A stretch of DNA of 63,699 nt, the filler included, from an uncultured bacterium (GTDB taxonomy: Bacteria > CAYUVA01): assembly GCA_964448115.1 (NCBI GenBank). It is 3 parts of 3 records of this genome, joined end to end, with 100 filler letters (N's around TTAATTAATTAA, not from the genome) between each part and the next. Parts side by side here need not be neighbours in the genome. Positions count along the whole stretch, not along the records: positions 7,215 to 38,581 come from CAYUVA010000046.1; 2 more parts are not named here. One strand, 5' to 3'. The notes beneath the pieces were generated by a model. That model was not told the DNA's origin. It saw only the letters and a list, made by a program, of their open reading frames with translations, and searched no databases. The translations under genes and the position numbers were made by a program. Of this stretch, positions 26,402-61,047 are shown piece by piece; the stretch's first letter is position 1; each line of letters starts with the position of its first letter.

Positions 26402-27520
26402 TCACTTGTCAGAATCCTTTTCACCACCCGCATATTTTCGTAACATCTCTCCAAGCCTTTGATTCGAATCCATGACCACATTGACGCATTTTTGACAATA
26501 AGATGGCATATTCCCAGCTAAAAAGGAGGATCTGACCGACTGAAAAGGAGCGCTGAACCATATCTCTTCAAGGGAATTATTCATGACACTACCACCAAAA
26601 TTGTTTTCCTGGAAACCACAAATCATAGTCTGGCCATTAACCTGGATAGTAAGGTGGAGCCATGGCTCGTAGCAGGGCATGACTAAAAAGGAGATTGCCT
26701 GTTCTTTTTCATTGGAATGAGCCTTGTTTCTCGATTGAGAGACATTTTGCATCTGCTGCCTGTTAGCTTCCTCGATGATATGATCGAGATTATTTTGTAT
26801 TCCTTTTTTCTGGCAGAATTGATAAGCCTTGCTCGCCTCCTTCACAAGCAGTTCTATATCATCATCTTCAATCTGCAATCGCCTACCCTTATCATCATAA
26901 ACGGTAAGGCTCTGCGGTTTAAAGACATCAGCTCCCAGTCTATGTGCATGTTTTGCCATCCTTGATAAAAAGGGATAATTATCTTTTACTAGCACCGGAC
27001 CCACCTCAAGAACGGGCTTGTTTTTGCCCAAGTGTCGCTTCAAACCGGCGAATTGTTTAATAGCAGCGGTAATGCGCTTGAAGGCTCCAGGGATCTGTGT
27101 CAGGTTGTCATGGATACTAGCCTTGTGCCCATAAAGGGAGAACTTGATGTAATCCCAGCCCATATACACCGTTTGGTTTATGATTTCAGTGTTGAAGTTT
27201 GTGCCATTGGTATTCAGGTACCCATAGATTCCATGAGATTTGATGGCTTCCATTAGCATCAGGGTATCATCGAGTCTCATCAAGGGTTCTCCACCGCCAA
27301 TGATATGCCACTGTTGCACTCCCAATTTTGCTGATTCCTCTACTAGTTCCAGCATCCGTGTTATCGGGATCTCAGGGACTTGATAGCCCGGCGGTTCAAT
27401 GCGCTTATGGCAGAATATGCAGCAAAGGTTACAGCGATTGGTAGGGAAATACTCGATTTTTATAGGATAGGCTCGCTTGCCATGCAGCCAAAGCATCAGC
27501 CTTTTAATCCGTTCGTCCAT
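26402..27520 (-). CDS. Radical SAM protein with SPASM/twitch domain
   Basis: CNLCCIFC, GGGEP, TNG, C-terminal CYEPW...C...CQKC. Confidence 0.9.
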   Translation of the reverse strand: MDERIKRLMLWLHGKRAYPIKIEYFPTNRCNLCCIFCHKRIEPPGYQVPEIPITRMLELVEESAKLGVQQWHIIGGGEPLMRLDDTLMLMEAIKSHGIYGYLNTNGTNFNTEIINQTVYMGWDYIKFSLYGHKASIHDNLTQIPGAFKRITAAIKQFAGLKRHLGKNKPVLEVGPVLVKDNYPFLSRMAKHAHRLGADVFKPQSLTVYDDKGRRLQIEDDDIELLVKEASKAYQFCQKKGIQNNLDHIIEEANRQQMQNVSQSRNKAHSNEKEQAISFLVMPCYEPWLHLTIQVNGQTMICGFQENNFGGSVMNNSLEEIWFSAPFQSVRSSFLAGNMPSYCQKCVNVVMDSNQRLGEMLRKYAGGEKDSDK

Positions 27521-27639: not shown

Positions 27640-28225
27640 TTTCCCACCCCTTTAATCCCCCCGTGTTCACGGTTGTCCCCTCTTCTTTTCCCCCCCTGTT
27701 CACGGTTGTCCCCTCTTCTTTTCCCCCCCGTTCACGGTTGTCCCCTCTTCTTTTCCCCCCCGTTCACGGGGGGGATTAAGGGGGGGGGAAACAGCCCCGA
27801 AAGACCGAATCTAATCACCCTCATTTTTACCTATGTCCCTTTTTCTTTTCCCCCCTGTTCACGGTTGTCCCCTCTTCTTTTCCCCCCCGTTCACGGTTGT
27901 CCCCTCTTCTTTTCCCCCCCGTTCACGGGGGGGATTAAGGGGGNNNNNNNNNNNNNNNNNNNNNNNNNNNNNNNNNNNNNNNNNNNNNNNNNNNNNNNNN
28001 NNNNNNNNNNNNNNNNNNNNNNNNNNNNNNNNNNNNNNNNNNNGGGGGGGGGAAACAGCCCCGAAAGACCGAATCTAATCACCCTCATTTTTACCTATGT
28101 CCCTTTTTCTTTTCCCCCCGTGTTCACGGTTGTCCCCTCTTCTTTTCCCCCCCGTTCACGGGGGGGATTAAGGGGGGGGGAAACAGCCCCGAAAGACCGA
28201 ATCTAATCACCCTCATTTTTACCTA
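27640..28225. repeat. Nested tandem repeat of REP-like units, containing a 100-N gap (27944-28043)
   Basis: About 32-bp unit GTTCACGGTTGTCCCCTCTTCTTTTCCCCCCC in runs. Each run ends in CCCCCCCGTTCACGGGGGGGATTAAGGGGG plus a ~45-bp AAACAGCCCCGAAAG...TTTTACCTAT block, seen at least three times. Confidence 0.9.
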
Positions 28226-28264
28226 TTGACAAATTGTGTCATTTATGCTTGTATTTCTCTTGCC

Positions 28265-29990: not shown

Positions 29991-32900
29991 CTATGGATAT
30001 ACGATAAGATATGGCCAGGGATTCCCCTGAATGCCGCCTAGAAATGGCATCAGCTCCAGGTTGAATGTCTCGCTGAAAGGCAGGGTGAATCCCTCGATGC
30101 GCAGGTAGAAGACGCGCTCGAACTGCTCGCTCGGCTCCAGAAAGAGACCAGTCGGCGACCCCTGGTAATAAACCTTAACACCCATTGAGCTTATCCAGGA
30201 GCCAATCGACTCGTATTCACCCACCTGGCAATAAAGTTCCATAGTGTCAGGCACACCCCGCACCAACCGGGTTGACATGTATCCAGCGAACTCAATAAAG
30301 GGGCATTGCACCGCGCTGGTAGCAGTCGCTGTCGGAGTTACATAAGGGGGCATGGTGGCAGTTGGTGTATCGGTGGGGTGATCGGTCGGCGTAGCGCTCG
30401 CTGTCGGCGTAACTGAAGGCGCGATGCTTGGAGTTGCCGTCGGCGTCGTTGTCGGAGTCAATCGCCAGGGAAGACCCGGAACGGAAGCCTCCTGTGCATA
30501 AGGACCGCTTAGATAATCATCCCAATACCCCCTATCCTCAATGTAGGTATAGGCGAAGCTCGATTGACCGGGAAGACCCTTGGATCGCACATAAGCGATC
30601 TCATCAGCTATCTCGCTGAAGTCTTCATAGTTGCAGCTCATCCCCGGATAGATGTGTCTCCCATAAGCCCTGTCTGCATAGAAATCGACCAGAACATCGA
30701 AGTAGGGCGGGCTGCCTCCGATTGACCAATATATCATGGGGGTTATTGCATCGATCATGCCGCCCCGCAGCCAGTCGATCGAGTCCTGGTAGTAATCATA
30801 ATAAGCCTCGGCAGCTCCCCAACCCCAGAGATCCTGATATACACCGACCACAGCGGCGCTAAGCGTAACCTGGCGGGGTAGGCTAAGGATATCGCTGTAA
30901 ATCTGGCTCACCACATCGCCAAGTATCCAGCGCTGAAAATCATCCCAGGGCAGCGACTGTGGATTATCATTGACGAAGCGATCCAGAGTCCAGGCATCGT
31001 AAGAATAAACGCTCGAAGGATAGCGTATATAATCGAGGTGAATGCCATCAACCAGATAATAGGTTGTTATCTCGTTGATGACCATACGCAAGTGCTGTAT
31101 GTACTCGGGGATTCCTGGGCTGAAGAAGACATAGCCGCTATTCAGTTGCATCCTCTGCCCCTGATCATCGACGCAGAGCCATTCCGGGTGCGCGTTGTAC
31201 AGGTGCGGAGGCTCGCACGGTGGCGGAGGTGTGGTGCCGCTCCAGCAGGTCATGGCGTTTACCCAGGCGTGAAGCTCGATGCCGTTGATATGCGCCTCCT
31301 CAATGGCCACCATCAGCGGATCCCAGCCGGGATGTTGCCCCAAAGTGCCGCTCAGCTCCGCTGCCCACGGCTCGTAGCTGCTGTCGTAGAAGGCATCCGC
31401 CCTCCCCCTGACCTGGAAGAAGACTACATTGAAGTTGTGCTGGGCAGCCTTTTGGATGATGCTGCGCACATCGGACTCGGTGCTGTAGTTCCACCTGGTT
31501 ACCCACAGGGCGCGGAACTCCTCGCTCGGTTGAGAAGGGGTTTCGGTCGGAGAGGCAGTGAATGTCTCGGTTGGTGTAAGTGTCGGCGTTCTGCTCGGTG
31601 TAAAGGTGGGCGCATCAGTTGGACTGCTAGTCGGCGTTCTGCTCGCCGTATATGTAGGTGCTCCTGTTGGAGTACGGGTAGGCGACAAGGTCGGCGTCCT
31701 GGTTGGCGTATAGGTAATAAAAGGCGTATCCGTTGATGTTGATGAGGCTGTGGGTGTCCTGGTTGCTGTACGAGTTGGTGTTCTGGTGGGTGTGCGTGTG
31801 GGAGTCGGGCTTACCCCGCTTATGCGAACGAACTTGGCAGCAGCGGTTCGCAGCACCCCGGAGGTCGCATTCCCTCGATTATGCTCCACTTTACCGGCAG
31901 TCCCCGTGTTGAAGTAGTATCTTCCAAGGTAAACCCATGTATCTTGAAGCTCCTCAAGCTGATCGATATAGTGGTCGCTAGTGCCCCCTGCATGGTGCAC
32001 CCTGTACAGCACATCGTTCAAGCCGACGCTCCCCCAGGCAACATAGAGATCGTAATCCCCTGCAACCGATATATTCGGCTGATAGTACGCTGATCTTCCG
32101 CCATAGACCGCGCTTGTCCATCGAGTTCCGCTTGCGATGCAGCCTTGCGCGGTGCAGATCGAAGTGGTGCTATCCGCCCAGGTGCCGCTCTCGGAGTACC
32201 AGACATTGTTATGCCCATCCGGATAGCTCTCAATGATGATCGTCTCCTGGGGGATAGGAGTGTTGGTCGGTGTCGGCGTTGGTTCACCTCCATGCAGACG
32301 CTCATAGACCGCATCGCGAAGCCACCCGCTACTAGGATCGCTACCAATGTACCCATAAAGTATATCCCCTGGGCATGCAGTTGCGCCGACATCGCGATGT
32401 CCATAGATAGTCCTCATATTATCGCCATAGTTCCTGTAATAGTCCATACCATAAGGATCGATAGTATCGGTTACATGTCCAGCCATCCAGGCGAAGAGAT
32501 CAGCCAGGGAATTAAGCATGGCGCTGGTCGGCTGGTGATTGTATGGCGGATGAAAGTACCCCATGCAGGAAATGCCCATGGAGTCGCAGTTATATCCATC
32601 ATGTGCACCCCTGACATAGTCTCCCCCGTAACGCCCCTCAAAGATATGACCATGCTTACAGAATAGGTAATTATAACCAATGTCGCTCCAGCCGTTGTGA
32701 TCCATGTGGTAGTCCTGATGCGCTCGCACCCGAGCCTTGCACTGTTCGAGCGTCTCCGCGTTCCAGTCCGAGGGGGCTGCGGTGTGGTGAACGCACAGGT
32801 GGGTGGTCTCATAGCAGTAACTTGGTGAGCCGTTCATCGGTCTAGCGCCCCACTCGCTGCGGGATATAACCGGCGGCTTGGGGTAGATGTCCTTGGACAA

Positions 32901-33467
32901 ATCCGATGGCTTCACGGTAGGCTCCGCCCCCCCTTTGTATGGCTTGGTGCTATCGAAGAACAGGATGCTCAGCCGTTGCAACTCCAAGGGCATCGGTTCT
33001 GCGTTTATCCGGAGCCTTATCGAGTCATATACCGCCTCATTCATGGTCAGCAGGGTTGAAGCTGTGCCGCCATGGAAAGGATTGCGCCTGCCATCAGGAT
33101 AGGTTGGCGAGATCTCATCATCGTTGAGGGGAAGCTCCTTCCAGTCGGTGTAACCACCTTTCCTGCCCAGCGAGACCTCGATGATATAAGAACGCTCACC
33201 GGTGATCCCTGGAAGCCAGTTTATTGCCAGGGCATTGAACTTGCTCGGCGATACAATTTCAAGCAGATGCTCGCCTTCCTTGAGGGTAAGGGGTTTGATG
33301 AGTATGACCTTCTCGTAATCGCCAGCCTTCTCGATATCCTCCCTTACCCGCTGTCCAGGCTCGCTATCGAAGATATGCACCACAGCCACTGTCCTTGCCA
33401 GACAGACGCTGATAAAGGATAATGAAACCAAGAAAGATATTGCTAATATGACCCCTAGCTTCCTCAT
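29991..33467 (-). CDS. Secreted multidomain peptidoglycan hydrolase: amidase_2 (PGRP-like), golvesin/CBD-like domain, PT linker, GHL10 (DigH/YddW-like), PT linker, C-terminal WPYL domain
   Basis: ISRSEWGA, VHHTA, WSDIGYN, EGR and GHRD...ACPG. EFRALWV, FQVRGRADAFY, ELHAW, VDGIHLDYIRYP and PMIY. Confidence 0.85.
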   Translation of the reverse strand: MRKLGVILAISFLVSLSFISVCLARTVAVVHIFDSEPGQRVREDIEKAGDYEKVILIKPLTLKEGEHLLEIVSPSKFNALAINWLPGITGERSYIIEVSLGRKGGYTDWKELPLNDDEISPTYPDGRRNPFHGGTASTLLTMNEAVYDSIRLRINAEPMPLELQRLSILFFDSTKPYKGGAEPTVKPSDLSKDIYPKPPVISRSEWGARPMNGSPSYCYETTHLCVHHTAAPSDWNAETLEQCKARVRAHQDYHMDHNGWSDIGYNYLFCKHGHIFEGRYGGDYVRGAHDGYNCDSMGISCMGYFHPPYNHQPTSAMLNSLADLFAWMAGHVTDTIDPYGMDYYRNYGDNMRTIYGHRDVGATACPGDILYGYIGSDPSSGWLRDAVYERLHGGEPTPTPTNTPIPQETIIIESYPDGHNNVWYSESGTWADSTTSICTAQGCIASGTRWTSAVYGGRSAYYQPNISVAGDYDLYVAWGSVGLNDVLYRVHHAGGTSDHYIDQLEELQDTWVYLGRYYFNTGTAGKVEHNRGNATSGVLRTAAAKFVRISGVSPTPTRTPTRTPTRTATRTPTASSTSTDTPFITYTPTRTPTLSPTRTPTGAPTYTASRTPTSSPTDAPTFTPSRTPTLTPTETFTASPTETPSQPSEEFRALWVTRWNYSTESDVRSIIQKAAQHNFNVVFFQVRGRADAFYDSSYEPWAAELSGTLGQHPGWDPLMVAIEEAHINGIELHAWVNAMTCWSGTTPPPPCEPPHLYNAHPEWLCVDDQGQRMQLNSGYVFFSPGIPEYIQHLRMVINEITTYYLVDGIHLDYIRYPSSVYSYDAWTLDRFVNDNPQSLPWDDFQRWILGDVVSQIYSDILSLPRQVTLSAAVVGVYQDLWGWGAAEAYYDYYQDSIDWLRGGMIDAITPMIYWSIGGSPPYFDVLVDFYADRAYGRHIYPGMSCNYEDFSEIADEIAYVRSKGLPGQSSFAYTYIEDRGYWDDYLSGPYAQEASVPGLPWRLTPTTTPTATPSIAPSVTPTASATPTDHPTDTPTATMPPYVTPTATATSAVQCPFIEFAGYMSTRLVRGVPDTMELYCQVGEYESIGSWISSMGVKVYYQGSPTGLFLEPSEQFERVFYLRIEGFTLPFSETFNLELMPFLGGIQGNPWPYLIVYP

Positions 33468-53688: not shown

Positions 53689-54834
53689 ATGACTACCAAA
53701 CACCCAAATATATGGCTAGTAATTGCTGTTTTTTATGCAATGGAAGTGATTTTCATCCCCCAGGGGCTATCAATGGAAGCGAGCATCCAAGATCCAGCCT
53801 TCAAGGCTGCCGTGCTCATGGATGCCGACAGCGGAACAATTCTGTACCAGAAAAACATGCACCAGAGACTTCAACCTGCCTCTTTGGCTAAGCTTATGCT
53901 TATACTTATGATATTTGAAAAAGGATCCCAAGCGGAACTCGATTTCAACGACACGATAACCGTATCTGCCCGAGCCAGCAAAATGGGTGGCTCCCAGGTT
54001 TACCTAAAACATTTCGAGGTCTTCACGGTTAGGCAGTTGCTCGATGCGTTGATCATTCACTCAGCCAACGATGCTGCTGTGGCTCTAGCGGAACATATAG
54101 CCGGCTCCGATGGACAGATGGTCAGCCTTATGAACAAAAGAGCCGGGGAAATGGGGCTGAAGAACACGATTTTCCATTCGGTACATGGATTACCTCCAGG
54201 AAAAGGACAACAGCCAGACCTAGGCAGCGCCTATGATTTGGCTTTAATCTGTCAGCGCCTGGTCAAGTATCCAATGGTGCTAAAACTCGCATCGACCTAC
54301 CGTAAGCCTTTTCGCGACGGGAAGTTCATCCTTTCCAACTCCAATAAGTTGATCAATGACTATGATGGAGCAGATGGACTAAAGACCGGATATCACTCAA
54401 AGGCAGGATTCTGCCTTGCTGCAACCGCAAAAAGAGGTGATATGAGGCTGATAGCAATAACCCTTGGCATACAAGAGAAGAAAGACTGGTTCAACCAGAC
54501 CAGGCGACTGCTCGACTTTGGTTTCGATCACTTCACTCGACATAGGTTGGCAAAACAAGAACAAGTAATTGCCAGGAGATATCCGATAAAGATCAATGAA
54601 ACCGGAAAAACTAATTATTTTGATCTAGTTGCCATGAAGGACGCATGGGCGGTTGTACGAAAGATCGATGTCTCCAGAATCTCAAGGAAGATCGTTATGG
54701 AGACAGAGCCTGCCTTGCTAAAATCACCAGGATATGCCCCTGAGCCTGTCGGGAGCCTTATTTTCTATCTTAATGGTCAGCAGTTATCTTCGGTGCCGCT
54801 TTTGCTCAAGGCATCTGCTCAGTTGCCCCAATGA
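53689..54834 (+). CDS. dacA: D-alanyl-D-alanine carboxypeptidase (peptidase S11)
   Basis: PASLAK (SxxK), SAN (SxN), HGL, KTG. Confidence 0.9.
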   Translation: MTTKHPNIWLVIAVFYAMEVIFIPQGLSMEASIQDPAFKAAVLMDADSGTILYQKNMHQRLQPASLAKLMLILMIFEKGSQAELDFNDTITVSARASKMGGSQVYLKHFEVFTVRQLLDALIIHSANDAAVALAEHIAGSDGQMVSLMNKRAGEMGLKNTIFHSVHGLPPGKGQQPDLGSAYDLALICQRLVKYPMVLKLASTYRKPFRDGKFILSNSNKLINDYDGADGLKTGYHSKAGFCLAATAKRGDMRLIAITLGIQEKKDWFNQTRRLLDFGFDHFTRHRLAKQEQVIARRYPIKINETGKTNYFDLVAMKDAWAVVRKIDVSRISRKIVMETEPALLKSPGYAPEPVGSLIFYLNGQQLSSVPLLLKASAQLPQ

Positions 54835-57800
54835 CTTCCCTGATACAGCCTCGGCTTGATGCCCAATTCATCCTCAAGCAAGCGGTTGAAATCCCGGTGC
54901 ATAAGGATCATCTTTATCAGGGCTTCCTTGTCTTGAGCAGGTCTAGTTGCCTGGTTGGAATCCCCCTCGCTCTTGGTGAAGTGGAAGATCATGTATCCGC
55001 TATGCTCGCCGAAGGAGGATCTTGCGATCACGGTCCATAGCCAGAAGCCGGCATCAAAGCTGTCCCAGTAGTCTTGAGTCAGCCATAGCTCGGTGAGCCA
55101 GCCGGGCACCTGATCCTGCACCAGATCTCCGATGAAGCCATCATCGCCCATGAGAGCCAAGAATATGCGATATATATGAGCACCCGGATACGCATCCCAC
55201 TTGAAGATGGGAGCAGGAGATACGGGGAGAACCGAGAAATCAGCCGGCTCACGCAAGACCACGGCATAGGTCGGGGCAAAGGTAACCACGGTCGGCTCAC
55301 TGTACGGGGTTATCTCCGCGCCCCCAGGTTGCCTAATACCGCAGACATCCCAGGCTATGCCGCCTAGCTCGGAGAGCACATCCCAGGTCTGCTCGCTAAC
55401 CGGGTATAATACAGTGGCGATGCCCATGAACTCGCTGTAGTCCCCGGGAGCGAAGTCAACCCAGGATACGCTATCGCCGATTATAGTGCGCAGGCGATAG
55501 CAGTCCACACCGCTTACCGTTGTCCAACTGAATTTGACCATCCCCTCCTCGAGGTAGTAGTTGAGCCATGCGCCATCGGCGGGATAGACATTAATCGGCG
55601 TTTCTGGAGTATTATCCAAAATATTGAATGTCCAGCTCTCCTCGATGCAGTTTCCAGCAAAATCGCATACCCCCAGGCTTACATCGACCCGGCTACCTTG
55701 TGGGTATGGCTCTGAGGCTTGATAAACCATCCTTATGCCGGATTCGATCGCTTCCATGGTCGGAGAGACGGAGGAATGGTTAACGGTAATCGCCACCGAG
55801 CTGGGATCGACCCCTCTACCCTTGTCTTTGACCTCGATGGTGATCGACGTATCCGGCCGCACGCCAGTCGTCCCTGGAGCCGGAGATCTGAAGCTGATAT
55901 AAGGAGGAGCGGTGGTGATGAAGCTCCAGGCGAACTCACTAACCATTCCGTGAAGATCGGCCGCCGATACCCAGACATCCACATCAGCACCGGCGGGGAA
56001 CAGATCTAATGGTTGAAAGCTCACATAATAAGAGCCATTGCTTCGAGGTTGCAGGGATGGGGTAACCTCGGAGCCATTGATGGTCATAAGTATCGTCTCA
56101 GGATCAACACCGATCCCCTTATCGAGAATATTTATAGAAACGGTGCTATCGAGGGGTACCTCGTTGCCTTTGGGGAGGTTGTCATAATATACCGGTGGCA
56201 TAAGGGTCTCGAACACCCAGGTGCTTGTGGCATCGCTGCAATTGCCCACCATGTCGCACGAGGAGACCATGACACAGACCGTCTCATTATCAGAAAACGG
56301 AGTCGAAGGTTGATATGCAAGGTGATAACCATTTTCAATCTGCGTTAACTGCGGGCTTACTAGCTGGTTATCAATGGTCATCTCGATGCTGGTCGGGTCA
56401 ACACCGGAGGTTTGATCAGTAAGATCAGCCTCTATAATGACATCCCCAGGCACATCCGATGCACCGTTAGGTGGATGCAAATTAGTCAACACGGGAAGAT
56501 CAGCCGAGATAAAGCTCCACTGCGTGCTCTTAAGCTCTCCATTGCTCACTAGGCTCACCGAAACCGTGTTCTCCACGCCCGGATCAAGGTATTCGTGATT
56601 ATTGGGATGCTGGTAATCGATGGATACCCCGTTTTCGATCTGGGAGACAGTGGGGGTTACGCTTGTGTCGTTGATGGCTAATGTTACATTGCTTGGGTCG
56701 ATCTGAGCACCTTCCTCGATATATTCAACATGGATATTGGTATCAAGTGCCACCTCGATCGCTCCAGGTTCTGGATAATGATCTCTCCATCCACCAGCGC
56801 CCTGGATGGTGGTAAATGTCCATGATACATACCCTTCATCGCCGGTGATTGTTGCTGCGCTGCATTCGGCTTGAAGTATAGCCCCCTCCGGCAGCATCTG
56901 TTGAGGATAAGCGGAGACATGGTAGCCCTTCTCGATAGCCTGTAGGCTCTGGGTTACCGGTATATCGCCCAAGATAAGACTGATGCTCTGGGGATCTACC
57001 TCACTTTCATCAGAAAGAACATCCACGCTGATAATTGAATCAACAGGTACATCCATGCTTCCCGGTTGGGGAGCCTGGTTCCTGAAATATATGGCGCCGC
57101 CAGAGATCCCCACGAAATACTCTTGGGTAATGCATTGCTTGGTTACAGTGCACGCTGAGATCTCTATTCCAAGCTGATAACCGGCGGGGTATAGGTTGTT
57201 CGATTGGTAATAGACCGAGTACCCTTTCTCGATTGGGCTGATGGTAGGAGTTACCTCTCCATCAAAGCTAGTCCATAGCGTGATGGTGGAGGGTTCCACT
57301 TGGGTTGTATCAGAGAGCACCTCGAAGTAGATGCCCGTATCCCTGGCAACGCCAGTCGCTCCCGGTGCCGGATGGTGATTTGCAAAGTAGATCTCCCTTT
57401 GGGATTGCAAGGTGGTGAAGCTCCAATAGAAGCTATCACACTGAGCTTTCATGCTACAGGCAGCGACATCGACCCGGTAGTTAGTCCCCTCGACAAGCGT
57501 TTGGGGAGCATAGCTGACATGAACGCCACCTTGGATCTCTGTGATTTCAGGTGTTACCGCGCTCCCATCCAGCTGCATGATCACGCTCGAACTGTCGATA
57601 CCTACACCGCTCTCGTCAACAATATCCACCGAGATAACTACATCAACAGGTACATCGACCGAGTCAGGCTCCGGAAACGGATTTTGGAACATGACCGATG
57701 GCTCTGTGGATCCTCTTTCAGAGCCGGTCATATCGCTGGACTGTGCTTCCAGGAGCGCCTGCGGATCATGAAAATTCAATGAAATATTGCTCGCATCAGC

Positions 57801-57869
57801 GTACATGGCTGTACAAGCTATCGAACAAAGAAAAACTAGTGCTGTTAAAATATACCTGTACTGTCTCAT
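54819..57869 (-). CDS. Secreted protein with about 7 tandem SbsA/Big_5-like Ig repeats and two FN3-like C-terminal domains
   Basis: Repeats of P.PG...VP.D..I....D...G.D.SI......WSFTT, about 100 aa each. Confidence 0.8.
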   Translation of the reverse strand: MRQYRYILTALVFLCSIACTAMYADASNISLNFHDPQALLEAQSSDMTGSERGSTEPSVMFQNPFPEPDSVDVPVDVVISVDIVDESGVGIDSSSVIMQLDGSAVTPEITEIQGGVHVSYAPQTLVEGTNYRVDVAACSMKAQCDSFYWSFTTLQSQREIYFANHHPAPGATGVARDTGIYFEVLSDTTQVEPSTITLWTSFDGEVTPTISPIEKGYSVYYQSNNLYPAGYQLGIEISACTVTKQCITQEYFVGISGGAIYFRNQAPQPGSMDVPVDSIISVDVLSDESEVDPQSISLILGDIPVTQSLQAIEKGYHVSAYPQQMLPEGAILQAECSAATITGDEGYVSWTFTTIQGAGGWRDHYPEPGAIEVALDTNIHVEYIEEGAQIDPSNVTLAINDTSVTPTVSQIENGVSIDYQHPNNHEYLDPGVENTVSVSLVSNGELKSTQWSFISADLPVLTNLHPPNGASDVPGDVIIEADLTDQTSGVDPTSIEMTIDNQLVSPQLTQIENGYHLAYQPSTPFSDNETVCVMVSSCDMVGNCSDATSTWVFETLMPPVYYDNLPKGNEVPLDSTVSINILDKGIGVDPETILMTINGSEVTPSLQPRSNGSYYVSFQPLDLFPAGADVDVWVSAADLHGMVSEFAWSFITTAPPYISFRSPAPGTTGVRPDTSITIEVKDKGRGVDPSSVAITVNHSSVSPTMEAIESGIRMVYQASEPYPQGSRVDVSLGVCDFAGNCIEESWTFNILDNTPETPINVYPADGAWLNYYLEEGMVKFSWTTVSGVDCYRLRTIIGDSVSWVDFAPGDYSEFMGIATVLYPVSEQTWDVLSELGGIAWDVCGIRQPGGAEITPYSEPTVVTFAPTYAVVLREPADFSVLPVSPAPIFKWDAYPGAHIYRIFLALMGDDGFIGDLVQDQVPGWLTELWLTQDYWDSFDAGFWLWTVIARSSFGEHSGYMIFHFTKSEGDSNQATRPAQDKEALIKMILMHRDFNRLLEDELGIKPRLYQGSHWGN

Positions 57870-58022: not shown

Positions 58023-60836
58023 CTACTCGACTACCACCAGGTAGGGCCACTCGTGGCTTTCCACACCAGAGCGTACCGCCTTTAGGCTAACCAATAAACT
58101 GGCTGGGTAAGTCGGTCCCAAGGGCGTAACCGGGAATTGATAAACCAGGTTTACAGGATCAACCAAAGGCAGATCTACTCCAAGATAATTGCCCTGGTAA
58201 TACATGCCGACATAGTCGATCCCAAGCCCTAATGGATCTAGGCAGAGCGCCAGCATGGTGAATAATCCACCGCTGGCTGATGTTATTCGGGTATCCATGT
58301 ATCCAGCTAGCTGAATTACCGCCGGCTCAGAGGGGGTCGGTGTAGATGTCGGTGTTGGCGTATTAGTTGCTGTATCGGTAGGTGTATTTGTGTTGGTTGG
58401 TGTAGCTGTGTCGGTTGGAGTTCCGGTAGCGGTAGGAGTCGGGGTCATAGTTGGTGTATCGGTAGGAGTCGGGGTCCTGGTCGCAGTCGGGGTCCTGGTC
58501 GCTGGTGGCACTCCTAGCCATACCCTTAGCACTGGACGATGCTCAGCCTCAAGCCCCTCGCAGGATATGAAGGTTAGCGCACCTTCGCCGCTGCTAGGTT
58601 GCACCTCGCCGAGCCACACACCGAAGTTAGTGTTCTTATCCGCAGTCCATTGATTCACTAAATGGGTTACATCCCATGTGTACCAGCCAGGCATCGAATC
58701 ATCAGTAAAGTCAACAACATCTTCAGCTATGCCGCTTCTATCTATCGGAACGCCGTTTGCACCCCACTGGTTCCAGGGGTCCATTGGATAGTGAGCTGTA
58801 CCCCAAGTAACCTCGCCGATCTCCGCTGCCCGACCCATAGCATCATTAGGATTAGCGCCGATGCCTACCCCCCAGCCACGGTTCATCCTGAAAACAGTCA
58901 ATTGCTTATCAGCATTTATTGGATCGGTAAGGTAAAGCTCAAGGTTGGCTTGCGATACGCTCATCCCGTTTATGCTGTCGATATCGAAGTAAAGAAGCGC
59001 ATTTCGTGCCTTGTTAGCCCCGCCGGGACCGCTTGCATAGAGCAGCTCCTCGTTGCCGGTGTTCCTGGTCGTCTGGTCGGCAACTATATGCGCATCCTTG
59101 GCTTGACTGTAACCATCAAAGCCGTTCTGGAATATGCGCATCACGGTCGGAGTTGGGGTTACGATCGGCGGCTCGGTACAGTAGCCGAAAGCATAGACAT
59201 CGGGCATACCATCCCAGGTGTTTACTATGTCGAATCCACCTGCGCTGTAAGGAGTATCATCCAAGGTTGCCGCAGCGTGCCTGAAAACGCTTATCGGCAG
59301 GTTCGGCTTCTCCTCCCATAGATTGGTTACCGGGTCGTAAACGAAGACCCGGTTAGTGGTATTCTCTATGTAAGTGCCGCCGATCATGCCAGCGATATGC
59401 CAAAACTTGCCATCGCTTATGGTCGAGGCTGCTCCCCACATGGTATAGGGCAGATACATGAATCGAGTCGTATCCATGATCCAGGTGGCGTTCACATCGG
59501 CAAGATCAAGAAACTCGGTCGTATTCGATGGATCGGAGCCGACTATGCCTCCAGCGACCCACAGCTTATTATCATAGGCATACATGCAGTGGAAATAGCG
59601 CGCATAGTTCATATTAGGCAACTGGGTCCAGCCTTTGGTCGCCGGGTCGTACTCGAAGACCTTGTTCTGAGTGGCTCCCGCCTCGGTTCTGCCACCGGAC
59701 ATATACAGCCTTCCATTATAGGAGACAGCCTTATGACCGAATACCGCCGGGATCTCGCCGGGCATAGCTATCGAATCCCAGGTGTCGTCCCCGATATCGT
59801 AAATCTGCATATTGCTCACCGCGGTATTGCCCAGAATATAGATCTTGTCGTCTATCACCGCGGCTGCCGTGTTGGTCAAGGGTTCAGGCACATCGGTGAT
59901 ATAATCCCAGGTATCAGCTAACGGGTCGTAACGCTCCACCTGGGGTACAGGGTCCGAACCGTTGTCCAATCCACCCACGATGTAAAGATAATCATCGTGG
60001 CTTACTAGTGCCGGGTCAAGACGCTTATAGCTCAGGAAGTCCTTCTCTGCCCACCCCCATATAAAGGTCTCCACCAGCACCTCGGCAGATGCCTGGAGCT
60101 TTATCGTATCGCAGGTGGCTACCACCTGTACTGTTGCCGGTAGCGTGTTGGCTGCAGTAATGTCTATGGAGAAGACGAACTCGTTGAGATCAGCCAAAGG
60201 ACCAACCGTGCCGGGACCGCTTACCGGGATATCGGCAATGTAATCGAGGTAAAAGACCTCGGTGCCACCAGTGTAGTTATACAGGGTTAAGTCATGCTGA
60301 AATACAGAGTTTAAACAGACGCTGTATTCTGCCTCAGCCGGCTGCATTAACAGCGCCGGGGGTAGGATCAGATAGACAATGCCATCGAGCTGGTGCGGGG
60401 GTGAACCCCAAGTATCCCCCTCAAGGTACCACTCTACCGGTTCGGTATCCTTAGATAAGCCCGGAATGGTTACATTGACGCAGAAGTAATGATCGCTTTG
60501 ACCATACTGCTCGCCGTAAGAGCCATCGGCATCTATCCAGGTGGCTACATTGGTGCCTGCTCCGCTGGTGTTCCAGTTGTGATCGCCATCATCATTAGGT
60601 CCGGGAAGATCCCACAGAGAGTTCACCGTCCAGCCGCTGGGAAATGTAAACTCCACATAGCTGAGCCACTCTGCATCCTCAGAGTTGTTCCAGACCAGAA
60701 AACAGATGTCAACATCGCCTGGTGCAACGATCTCAGGATCCGGAGTTACGGTAGATCCAGCGATACTTGCATGGGCTAAAGGCGCCCATAAACAAACAAA
60801 TAGAACCAAAAGTGGAATTATTGTCTTGTAGTTCAT
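58023..60836 (-). CDS. Secreted protein: Ig-like domains, Kelch propeller, DNRLRE/CBM96-like domain, PT linker, C-terminal WPYL domain
   Basis: Signal peptide AHA. Kelch motifs LYIVGG..VERYDP..W. DAHI...NTG...ALLYFDI...WDVT. Likely start MNYKT at 60836. Confidence 0.82.
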   Translation of the reverse strand: MNYKTIIPLLVLFVCLWAPLAHASIAGSTVTPDPEIVAPGDVDICFLVWNNSEDAEWLSYVEFTFPSGWTVNSLWDLPGPNDDGDHNWNTSGAGTNVATWIDADGSYGEQYGQSDHYFCVNVTIPGLSKDTEPVEWYLEGDTWGSPPHQLDGIVYLILPPALLMQPAEAEYSVCLNSVFQHDLTLYNYTGGTEVFYLDYIADIPVSGPGTVGPLADLNEFVFSIDITAANTLPATVQVVATCDTIKLQASAEVLVETFIWGWAEKDFLSYKRLDPALVSHDDYLYIVGGLDNGSDPVPQVERYDPLADTWDYITDVPEPLTNTAAAVIDDKIYILGNTAVSNMQIYDIGDDTWDSIAMPGEIPAVFGHKAVSYNGRLYMSGGRTEAGATQNKVFEYDPATKGWTQLPNMNYARYFHCMYAYDNKLWVAGGIVGSDPSNTTEFLDLADVNATWIMDTTRFMYLPYTMWGAASTISDGKFWHIAGMIGGTYIENTTNRVFVYDPVTNLWEEKPNLPISVFRHAAATLDDTPYSAGGFDIVNTWDGMPDVYAFGYCTEPPIVTPTPTVMRIFQNGFDGYSQAKDAHIVADQTTRNTGNEELLYASGPGGANKARNALLYFDIDSINGMSVSQANLELYLTDPINADKQLTVFRMNRGWGVGIGANPNDAMGRAAEIGEVTWGTAHYPMDPWNQWGANGVPIDRSGIAEDVVDFTDDSMPGWYTWDVTHLVNQWTADKNTNFGVWLGEVQPSSGEGALTFISCEGLEAEHRPVLRVWLGVPPATRTPTATRTPTPTDTPTMTPTPTATGTPTDTATPTNTNTPTDTATNTPTPTSTPTPSEPAVIQLAGYMDTRITSASGGLFTMLALCLDPLGLGIDYVGMYYQGNYLGVDLPLVDPVNLVYQFPVTPLGPTYPASLLVSLKAVRSGVESHEWPYLVVVE

Positions 60837-61047
60837 TGAGTTCCCCCTATCGGTACCGGGTTTACTACTTCTCATTCTAAGCCATCCTTTTCTTACATGA
60901 TACAGCTTACATATTAATTATGCAAATCCAATTTCAAAAAAAATTATCTCATCATGCCGCTTGGACTTAAGGCGCATTTTTAGTATGATCAGCCAACAAA
61001 TGATGCAAAAGAAATCAAGTATCGAAAGATCACGGGAGACTTAATCC

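Follow-up and report, generated by a model that had tools for sequence, protein, structure and literature searches.

A mostly C-terminal Ig-like domain on about 160 secreted proteins of an uncultured bacterium, tentatively a self-pairing module

Two genes in a 63,699-nucleotide stretch of DNA from an uncultured bacterium (assembly GCA_964448115.1; 'the window' below is this whole stretch) encode an amidase/GHL10 protein and a Kelch/DNRLRE protein that end in a common tail. These tails are members of a genuine, unnamed immunoglobulin (Ig)-like domain family of about 100 residues, which is found, mostly at the C-terminus, on about 160 secreted proteins of the same genome. About 5% of the genes and about 11% of the DNA encode large secreted proteins with this one common, unmodelled terminal domain, an architecture seen again in one other small phylum. 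We propose, at a probability of roughly 45%, that the domain is a self-pairing module that links the members of a large exoproteome to one another or keeps them at the cell surface. Read with the greatest caution, the data still define a new domain family clearly enough for curation, one marked by AGY and WPYL end strands and an optional choice-of-anchor-X loop.

The window consists of three contigs (C29, C46 and C55) with runs of N between them. The gene with tail copy 1 (gene 1) lies on C46 and that with copy 2 (gene 2) on C55, and both are laid out as follows (aa, amino acids; ORF, open reading frame; P/T, proline/threonine).

29991..33467, minus strand: gene 1 ORF, 1158 aa, with a signal-peptide-like N-terminus, Amidase_2, Golvesin_C and GHL10
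30669..33467, minus strand: gene 1 cargo part, with Amidase_2 (aa 222-368), Golvesin_C (aa 424-547) and GHL10 (aa 651-933)
30309..30461, minus strand: gene 1 P/T-rich linker of ~51 aa from GHL10 to copy 1, read from the translation
29994..30308 (stop codon excluded), minus strand: copy 1, C-terminal Ig-like domain, aa 1054-1158 of the 1158-aa protein
58023..60875, minus strand: gene 2 ORF, 950 aa, with a signal-peptide-like N-terminus, Kelch repeats and DNRLRE/CBM96
58518..60875, minus strand: gene 2 cargo part, with a Kelch beta-propeller (aa ~279-547) and DNRLRE/CBM96 (aa 593-786)
58329..58508, minus strand: gene 2 P/T-rich linker of ~60 aa ahead of copy 2, read from the translation
58026..58328 (stop codon excluded), minus strand: copy 2, C-terminal Ig-like domain in its short form, aa 850-950 of the 950-aa protein

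The cargo of gene 1 is matched by Pfam at E values of 2.9e-33 (GHL10), 3.7e-14 (Amidase_2) and 1e-13 (Golvesin_C), with a first P/T-rich linker placed between Golvesin_C and GHL10. For gene 2 the matches are Kelch_6 (5.7e-36) and CBM96 (1.6e-12) in Pfam and DNRLRE_dom (6.3e-18) in NCBIfam. The motifs AGYM..., YYQG... and WPYL are seen directly in the translated tails, and a single BLASTP comparison of copy 1 with copy 2 gives 27 identities in 101 positions (34.7 bits, E 2e-8). A first-pass annotation of the window had pointed to exactly this common tail after a P/T-rich linker on two proteins from different contigs, and also to the lack of a transmembrane segment or basic tail; both observations stand, the latter because no hydrophobic segment and no basic end is seen in either translated tail. 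Against the iterated family profile described below, copy 1 scores an E value of 2.5e-13 and copy 2 one of 3.6e-23. Like copy 2, copy 1 is a short form, without the acidic DDG loop, and its WPY motif lies five residues before the chain end. The secreted 1016-aa neighbour of gene 2 (window 54819-57869, minus strand), which carries Big_5-type Ig-like repeats, has no tail, so not every large exoprotein here is tailed.

All searches for paralogs used hidden Markov models (HMMs) over 30,492 six-frame ORFs of the source genome, G000 (3.98 Mb in 86 contigs, GC content 48%, 94.45% complete). An HMM built from the two window tails alone matches 92 ORFs at E ≤ 1e-3, so the likeness between the tails is far beyond chance. 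Iteration converges at 163 ORFs with 201 domain copies, in line with the many paralogs that had been expected. These ORFs sum to 152,390 aa, or 11.5% of the genome, and correspond to 160 of 2919 genes in a crude gene call. One copy is present in 127 ORFs, two in 35 and four in one, with these classes of layout.

Single copy, terminal: 113
Tandem pair, terminal: 30
Tandem pair, internal: 5
Single copy, N-terminal: 5
Single copy, internal: 9

The domain ends within 10 aa of the ORF end in 144 of the 163 ORFs, 11-60 aa from it in two and farther away in 17. The expectation that it would always be C-terminal is thus right as a tendency and wrong as a rule, given the five internal tandem pairs and the N-terminal and internal single copies; one GH31 protein has the domain at its N-terminus. 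The stop codon follows the WPY motif by 4-5 residues in 111 of 141 terminal full-length copies, and in 73 of the 113 single-terminal paralogs at least 50% of the 40 residues before the domain are P, T or S. A signal-peptide-like start, likewise expected of the paralogs, is found in 140 of the 163 ORFs by a crude test, which is weak evidence since the same test also flags 910 of 1869 background ORFs of at least 300 aa. The cargo is diverse: in 24 G000 family proteins scanned we found S8 subtilase, FG-GAP, PQQ-like propellers, a prenyltransferase-type toroid, beta-helix/NosD, BNR, fn3 and Big_5, and 11 of the 24 have no Pfam match at 1e-5.

An AlphaFold2 (AF2) model of copy 2, made from a 22-row alignment, is an eight-stranded sandwich (mean predicted local distance difference test, pLDDT, 79.2; predicted template modelling score, pTM, 0.68). 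Structure searches place this model among generic Ig/FN3 sandwiches. A Foldseek check of the single domain against the PDB, which had been suggested as a way of exposing a characterised domain, gives nothing at E ≤ 1e-3. Compared with 48,161 chains by VIA, the model retrieves generic FN3/Ig domains in a flat list, headed by a chitinase FN3 (Z 9.1, root-mean-square deviation 2.3 over 85 residues), and from the flatness of that list we take the predicted fold to be an ordinary one. The sole match of the profile among PDB sequences is Bap (E 0.002), and the ESM Atlas returns unnamed clusters alone, with recognition under the useful mark.

Neither window tail has any Pfam or NCBIfam match at E ≤ 10, and on 22 aligned copies Pfam gives sub-threshold matches only (DUF4625, Big_13 and Big_7 in 3 of 22 each, best E 5.8e-4), so that kinship to Pfam's bacterial Ig-like families (Big_3_3, Big_7, Big_13, DUF4625) is probably at the level of fold class. 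In NCBIfam, NF041940 ('choice-of-anchor X') matches 20 of the 22 aligned copies at E ≤ 1. This model spans 37 positions and covers the acidic loop only (D-D/N-G..x-D...G-D-G-x-Y); against its 25-bit cut-off, L005 (32.4), L001 (29.0) and the small stand-alone protein described below (25.2) lie above and L036 (20.9) and L013 (18.4) below, and the two window copies, which lack the loop, are unmatched at E ≤ 10. The claim that the motif matches no recognised domain therefore holds for the window tails and needs qualifying for the family, given the ordinary Ig/FN3 fold and the NF041940 loop of most paralogs. Judged by these database searches, the whole domain is outside Pfam and NCBIfam coverage and only its optional loop is modelled. 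Conservation peaks not in the loop but in the two end strands, the first with AGY and the last with WPYL. In the full-text literature, supplements and subscription journals being outside its scope, we found T9SS (type IX secretion system) papers and unrelated mentions of 'choice-of-anchor', and no account of the family.

G000 is the sole member of its phylum among the genomes compared. Its 40 compared relatives are all related at the domain (taxonomic) level only, and strong matches are seen in just one of them, G022 (25 matches). Of the 14 genomes in the phylum to which G022 belongs, here called the second phylum, 11 have matches at E ≤ 1e-12, numbering 4-47 in each. A search of 1.84 billion representative proteins yields 2361 matches at E ≤ 1e-3, 885 at ≤ 1e-10 and 217 at ≤ 1e-30. 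On this evidence the family is rare and restricted to G000 plus one other small phylum, which agrees with the lineage specificity first suggested.

Detailed layout figures rest on the best 150 of the 2361 protein matches, 24 of which are G000's own and 126 from elsewhere. Among these best matches, 115 of the 126 have a full-length copy, 91 of the 115 end within 10 aa of the C-terminus, and most of the 115 carry two copies. The other 11 are giant repeat proteins with a match to the core only; the two of them that were scanned, P0001 and P0113, carry 6-12 choice-of-anchor-X/Big_3_3 repeats, and have the domain core and loop without the AGY/WPYL end strands and not at the C-terminus. P0001 itself ends in zinc-ribbon/RING-like and PCI-like segments. 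A profile search for homologous longer proteins returned 20; where their sources give names, these describe the cargo ('VCBS repeat-containing', 'M36 family metallopeptidase') and in no case the tail. The tail region alone, used as the query for homologous proteins, returned nothing, and the single protein P0015 gave no confirmed related locus in a contig search. Two groups of relatives extend beyond the tandem pair: ~350-390 aa of PKD repeats follow it in one (P0021, P0032, P0039, P0054, P0104, P0106 and G000's own P0003), and ~150 aa ending in a G-x-G-R-C-like motif follow it in the other (P0051, P0063, P0069, P0079, P0082), where four of the five extensions have no Pfam family and one has Cep192_D4.

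Tandem proteins are built as one copy, a linker of 24-54 aa with a Trp-bearing helix, and a second copy. An AF2 model of one such pair (pLDDT 82, pTM 0.80) has two sandwiches, a helix at residues 123-141 and a disordered stretch at 110-127; a pTM this high despite the disordered linker suggests a fixed mutual arrangement of the two modelled domains. Foldseek against the PDB matches the tandem model to generic tandem Ig/FN3 structures only, near the Ca-binding adhesin SiiE and the FN3-like modules of CbhA. Two HMMs, one trained on the first and one on the second copies of tandem pairs, give copy 2 of the window a higher score as a first copy (63.6) than as a second copy (51.5).

The domain also exists on its own: G000, G022, G041, G045, G047 and G050 encode a small secreted protein, 184-222 aa long, made up of a signal peptide, the same short helix as in the tandem proteins, and one domain. 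This stand-alone copy scores as second-copy-like with the same pair of HMMs.

C4:99847-100404: stand-alone gene of G000

In each of the 11 positive second-phylum genomes, a small ORF (171-264 aa) gives the best match, and 33 columns are invariant across six stand-alone orthologues from two phyla. In five second-phylum genomes (loci L037-L040 and L022, in G045, G047, G041, G050 and G022), a conserved gene order runs from FabF through a cytoplasmic TPR protein and the stand-alone gene to a circularly permuted ATP-grasp-like gene. The TPR protein was considered as a partner and dropped, as it has no signal peptide and no clear orthologue in G000.

We modelled the stand-alone protein (residues 50-186) in complex with the copy 2 tail. 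The model scores 0.81 (0.70, 0.82 and 0.81 in individual runs), compared with 0.02 for the best of three controls. The score mark is reached by 116 of 157 solved complexes and by 2 of 215 mismatched pairs; these counts apply here only roughly, as the model was made from our own alignments. At least 71% of contacts are shared between runs, and the partner pLDDT is at least 68. The modelled interface is two-fold symmetric, with the AGY strands face to face and each WPYL strand lying on the YLLE-like strand of the other chain. Across the 201 copies the interface columns are more conserved than the rest (mean 2.10 versus 1.27 bits; p 4e-4 in a Mann-Whitney test). They make up one third of all columns and hold 10 of the 15 most conserved, including the top four (W, Y, P and G of WPY/GY). 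The stand-alone copy is thus predicted, by modelling only, to pair with a window tail through the conserved AGY/WPYL face.

From these results we derive the following proposal. An acidic Ig/FN3-like sandwich of ~100 aa, usually attached through a P/T-rich linker, caps ~160 diverse Sec-exported proteins. Its AGY first strand, YLLE-like strand and WPYL last strand would make one face that docks onto the equal face of a second copy. Such docking could happen in cis, within two-copy tandem proteins; in trans, between one single-copy cargo protein and another; and in trans, between cargo and the conserved small stand-alone copy that every positive genome encodes. The outcome would be a large exoproteome tethered together or kept at the cell surface, by a logic closer to cohesin-dockerin than to T9SS-type export. 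Tethering or surface retention as the purpose, and pairing in cis within tandem proteins, are what we infer from the layout and the models.

The distribution of copies bears on this directly. Five N-terminal and nine internal single copies favour a binding module over a C-terminal export signal, and the tandem pairs together with the occasional non-terminal copies argue against a pure export signal. A mere spacer is hard to square with conservation concentrated in the end strands, with chains that stop so exactly and with a conserved stand-alone orthologue. Taken together, these data suit a module for pairing or tethering better than a secretion signal that is cleaved off. The original suggestion of a secretion or surface-attachment tag survives in so far as the domain is mostly terminal on diverse cargo; it is not strictly terminal, with 35 tandem pairs and the N-terminal and internal copies.

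Several points weigh against a self-pairing module. The pairing is a model and not a measurement, and the controls for the complex model were unrelated proteins rather than other Ig-like domains of G000. The predictor may have transferred the in-chain packing of tandem pairs to two chains, the conserved aromatics could belong to the fold core instead of an interface, and pairing in cis through the same face is read from the pTM of the tandem model only. Inspection of the stand-alone sequences shows no lipobox or membrane anchor that is consistent among them, so pairing alone would not explain attachment to the cell. Complementary sub-types among the 127 single copies are unsupported, as the first- and second-copy HMMs class 57 as first-like, 28 as second-like and 42 as ambiguous. 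Finally, none of the large neighbour families is enriched around the 160 domain genes, no accessory family is clearly so, and no dedicated machinery or anchor came to light. The 'own machinery or scaffold' that the first-pass annotation had supposed was not found.

If the pairing and tethering proposal is true, it explains how an exoproteome is organized without T9SS in these uncultured lineages, and provides a simple secretome marker for metagenomes and a compact natural protein-protein tag. A more specific version of it, which we consider doubtful, is homotypic 'Velcro' display in diderms that lack T9SS, in which one conserved small hub protein, periplasmic or secreted and consisting of signal peptide, helix and one domain, captures the C-terminal domains of more than 100 exoproteins via the AGY/WPYL face. 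In that case tandem proteins would be self-closed units or linkers, about a tenth of the genome would be organized as one surface-associated coat of enzymes and adhesins, and exoproteome display would have a third solution that owes nothing to T9SS tails or to cohesin-dockerin.

The alternative that fares best, though we still lean against it, is a partnerless ligand-binding or structural module, which would recognize the cell's own lipopolysaccharide or exopolysaccharide, in the manner of SLH domains or S-layer anchors, or a substrate polymer, in the manner of a carbohydrate-binding module (CBM), possibly binding Ca2+, or would simply be a favoured spacer. The 201 copies are acidic (median isoelectric point 4.1, net charge -8), and 85 of them have the DxG..xD loop, which matches choice-of-anchor X and, weakly, a Ca2+-stabilized adhesin repeat. 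The Foldseek proximity of the tandem model to SiiE and CbhA modules fits as well, and tandem repeats suit avidity. Gene neighbourhoods add Wzx-type flippases, four of six of which lie within two genes of a domain gene (p 0.012; C10:31771-33213, C32:36475-37968, C35:35395-36642 and C53:18337-19746), and PMT_2-like, glycosyltransferase-type proteins, with three of four (p 0.021; C39:27976-29370). Together with the P/T-rich linkers, these neighbours hint at glycosylated exoproteins or a link to surface polysaccharide. However, none of the enrichments of small families survives correction for 12 tests, and three class-I tRNA synthetases that also lie near domain genes are put down to chance. Moreover, a ligand module would be expected neither to have its highest conservation in the end strands rather than in the loop, nor to lack the loop in 116 of 201 copies, both window copies included, and it leaves the stand-alone orthologue and the near-exact chain termination unexplained.

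Less probable again is an export or sorting signal, in which the sandwich is recognized in the periplasm by an outer-membrane route (a secretin system or a PorV-like FadL shuttle) and is perhaps cleaved or covalently attached, the stand-alone copy then being a periplasmic chaperone or targeting factor. The end-of-chain position in 144 of 163 ORFs, the stop codon 4-5 residues past WPY in 111 of 141 copies, the flexible P/T-rich linkers and the 140 signal-peptide-like starts are all as such a signal would have them. There is a precedent in T9SS, for which PMC4804311 describes the last two strands of an Ig-like C-terminal domain as the signal and the C-terminal domain of RgpB as dimerizing. The cell is also suitably equipped, as G000 is a diderm with LpxC, four Omp85-family proteins (837-988 aa; on C2, C9, C25 and C43) and six secretins (on C1, C6, C14, C15 and C40). 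Six secretin-domain and four Omp85 genes make an unusually rich set of outer-membrane channels for a 4-Mb genome. PorV of T9SS is a member of the FadL fold family, which makes FadL-like barrels candidates for a shuttle. G000 has nine FadL/TodX-family barrels, two of them directly beside domain genes and two more within two genes.

C36:23670-24869, C39:31066-32367, C22:40230-41573, C5:111540-112775: FadL barrels near domain genes

This enrichment is not significant (4 of 9, p 0.065), and the co-occurrence of transport genes that had been proposed as a check, followed for FadL, does not help: all 14 second-phylum genomes have FadL, the three without the domain included, so the profile does not separate positive from negative genomes. 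The export reading also has no clearly enriched accessory gene family nearby to draw on, and it does not lead one to expect 35 tandem pairs, five N-terminal and nine internal copies, or copies that precede PKD repeats.

The T9SS searches concern the best-known signal of this kind, whose traits the family partly shares: a modelled eight-stranded Ig-like sandwich, terminal in 144 of 163 ORFs. Por_Secre_tail (PF18962/TIGR04183) has zero matches in the whole of G000, and none on the window tails (E ≤ 10) or the 22 aligned copies (E ≤ 1). SprA, PorV and GldM have no match at E ≤ 0.001 in the 94.45% complete G000; the PorV search did find its target in a control genome, and the SprA and GldM searches did so in none, which makes these two negatives weaker. 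SprA is absent from 14 of 14 second-phylum genomes, where Por_Secre_tail occurs in two fragmented genomes only. One second-phylum genome, G049 (69% complete, 520 contigs), has eleven Por_Secre_tail matches, and bin contamination is possible there. No solved T9SS tail appears in the Foldseek (PDB) or VIA structural match lists, which by itself speaks neither for nor against kinship. We reject a divergent T9SS C-terminal domain as very improbable, because size class, Ig-like sandwich and C-terminal place on diverse Sec-exported cargo are offset by the lack of Por_Secre_tail, SprA, PorV and GldM in G000 and of SprA in the second phylum.

Two other features of the window were read from its sequence. 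A 372-aa ORF at 26402-27520 (minus strand) has a Cys-rich motif near its N-terminus in translation and is a candidate radical SAM (S-adenosylmethionine) enzyme. At 27640-28230 an intergenic repeat block flanks an assembly gap (N run 27944-28043); it contains a C-rich unit of ~32 nucleotides arranged head to tail and a longer unit of ~107-116 nucleotides on both sides of the gap, and the long ORFs in this block are translated repeat and not genes.

Compared with known systems, the family most resembles the T9SS tail of Bacteroidota in outward form: an Ig-like sandwich of ~70-100 aa, C-terminal on many unrelated Sec-exported proteins, with the last strands most conserved. It differs in having no sequence match to that tail and no SprA, PorV or GldM, and in its tandem pairs, N-terminal copies and stand-alone orthologue; we know of no tandem, N-terminal or stand-alone forms of T9SS tails. 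NF041940 and Big_3-type repeats share the acidic loop of most paralogs, and the domain core in P0001 and P0113 (Big_3_3), whereas the NF041940 model covers the loop only, the window copies are unmatched, and in the repeat proteins the end strands are missing and the matching part does not sit at the C-terminus. SLH and other non-covalent anchors are repeated small end modules that hold diverse exoproteins at the surface. No kinship to SLH in sequence or fold was detected, and PF00395 has no match on the window tails (E ≤ 10) or the 22 copies (E ≤ 1).

In cohesin-dockerin systems, a small module on many secreted enzymes, mostly C-terminal and with P/T-rich linkers, serves protein-protein tethering; there the dockerin, a helical duplicate that binds Ca, has as its partner a distinct cohesin carried by a scaffoldin. 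The family here is likewise one small module on many secreted proteins, with P/T-rich linkers and mostly, not always, at the C-terminus. It differs in fold, since its model is all-beta and neither the window tails nor the 22 copies have a Pfam match to dockerin (PF00404) or cohesin, in that no anchored scaffoldin-like protein was found, and in the partner predicted for it, a further copy of the Ig-like domain itself. Systems in which diverse secreted cargo shares one terminal module are of a known kind, and what is possibly new here is the homotypic mode of action.

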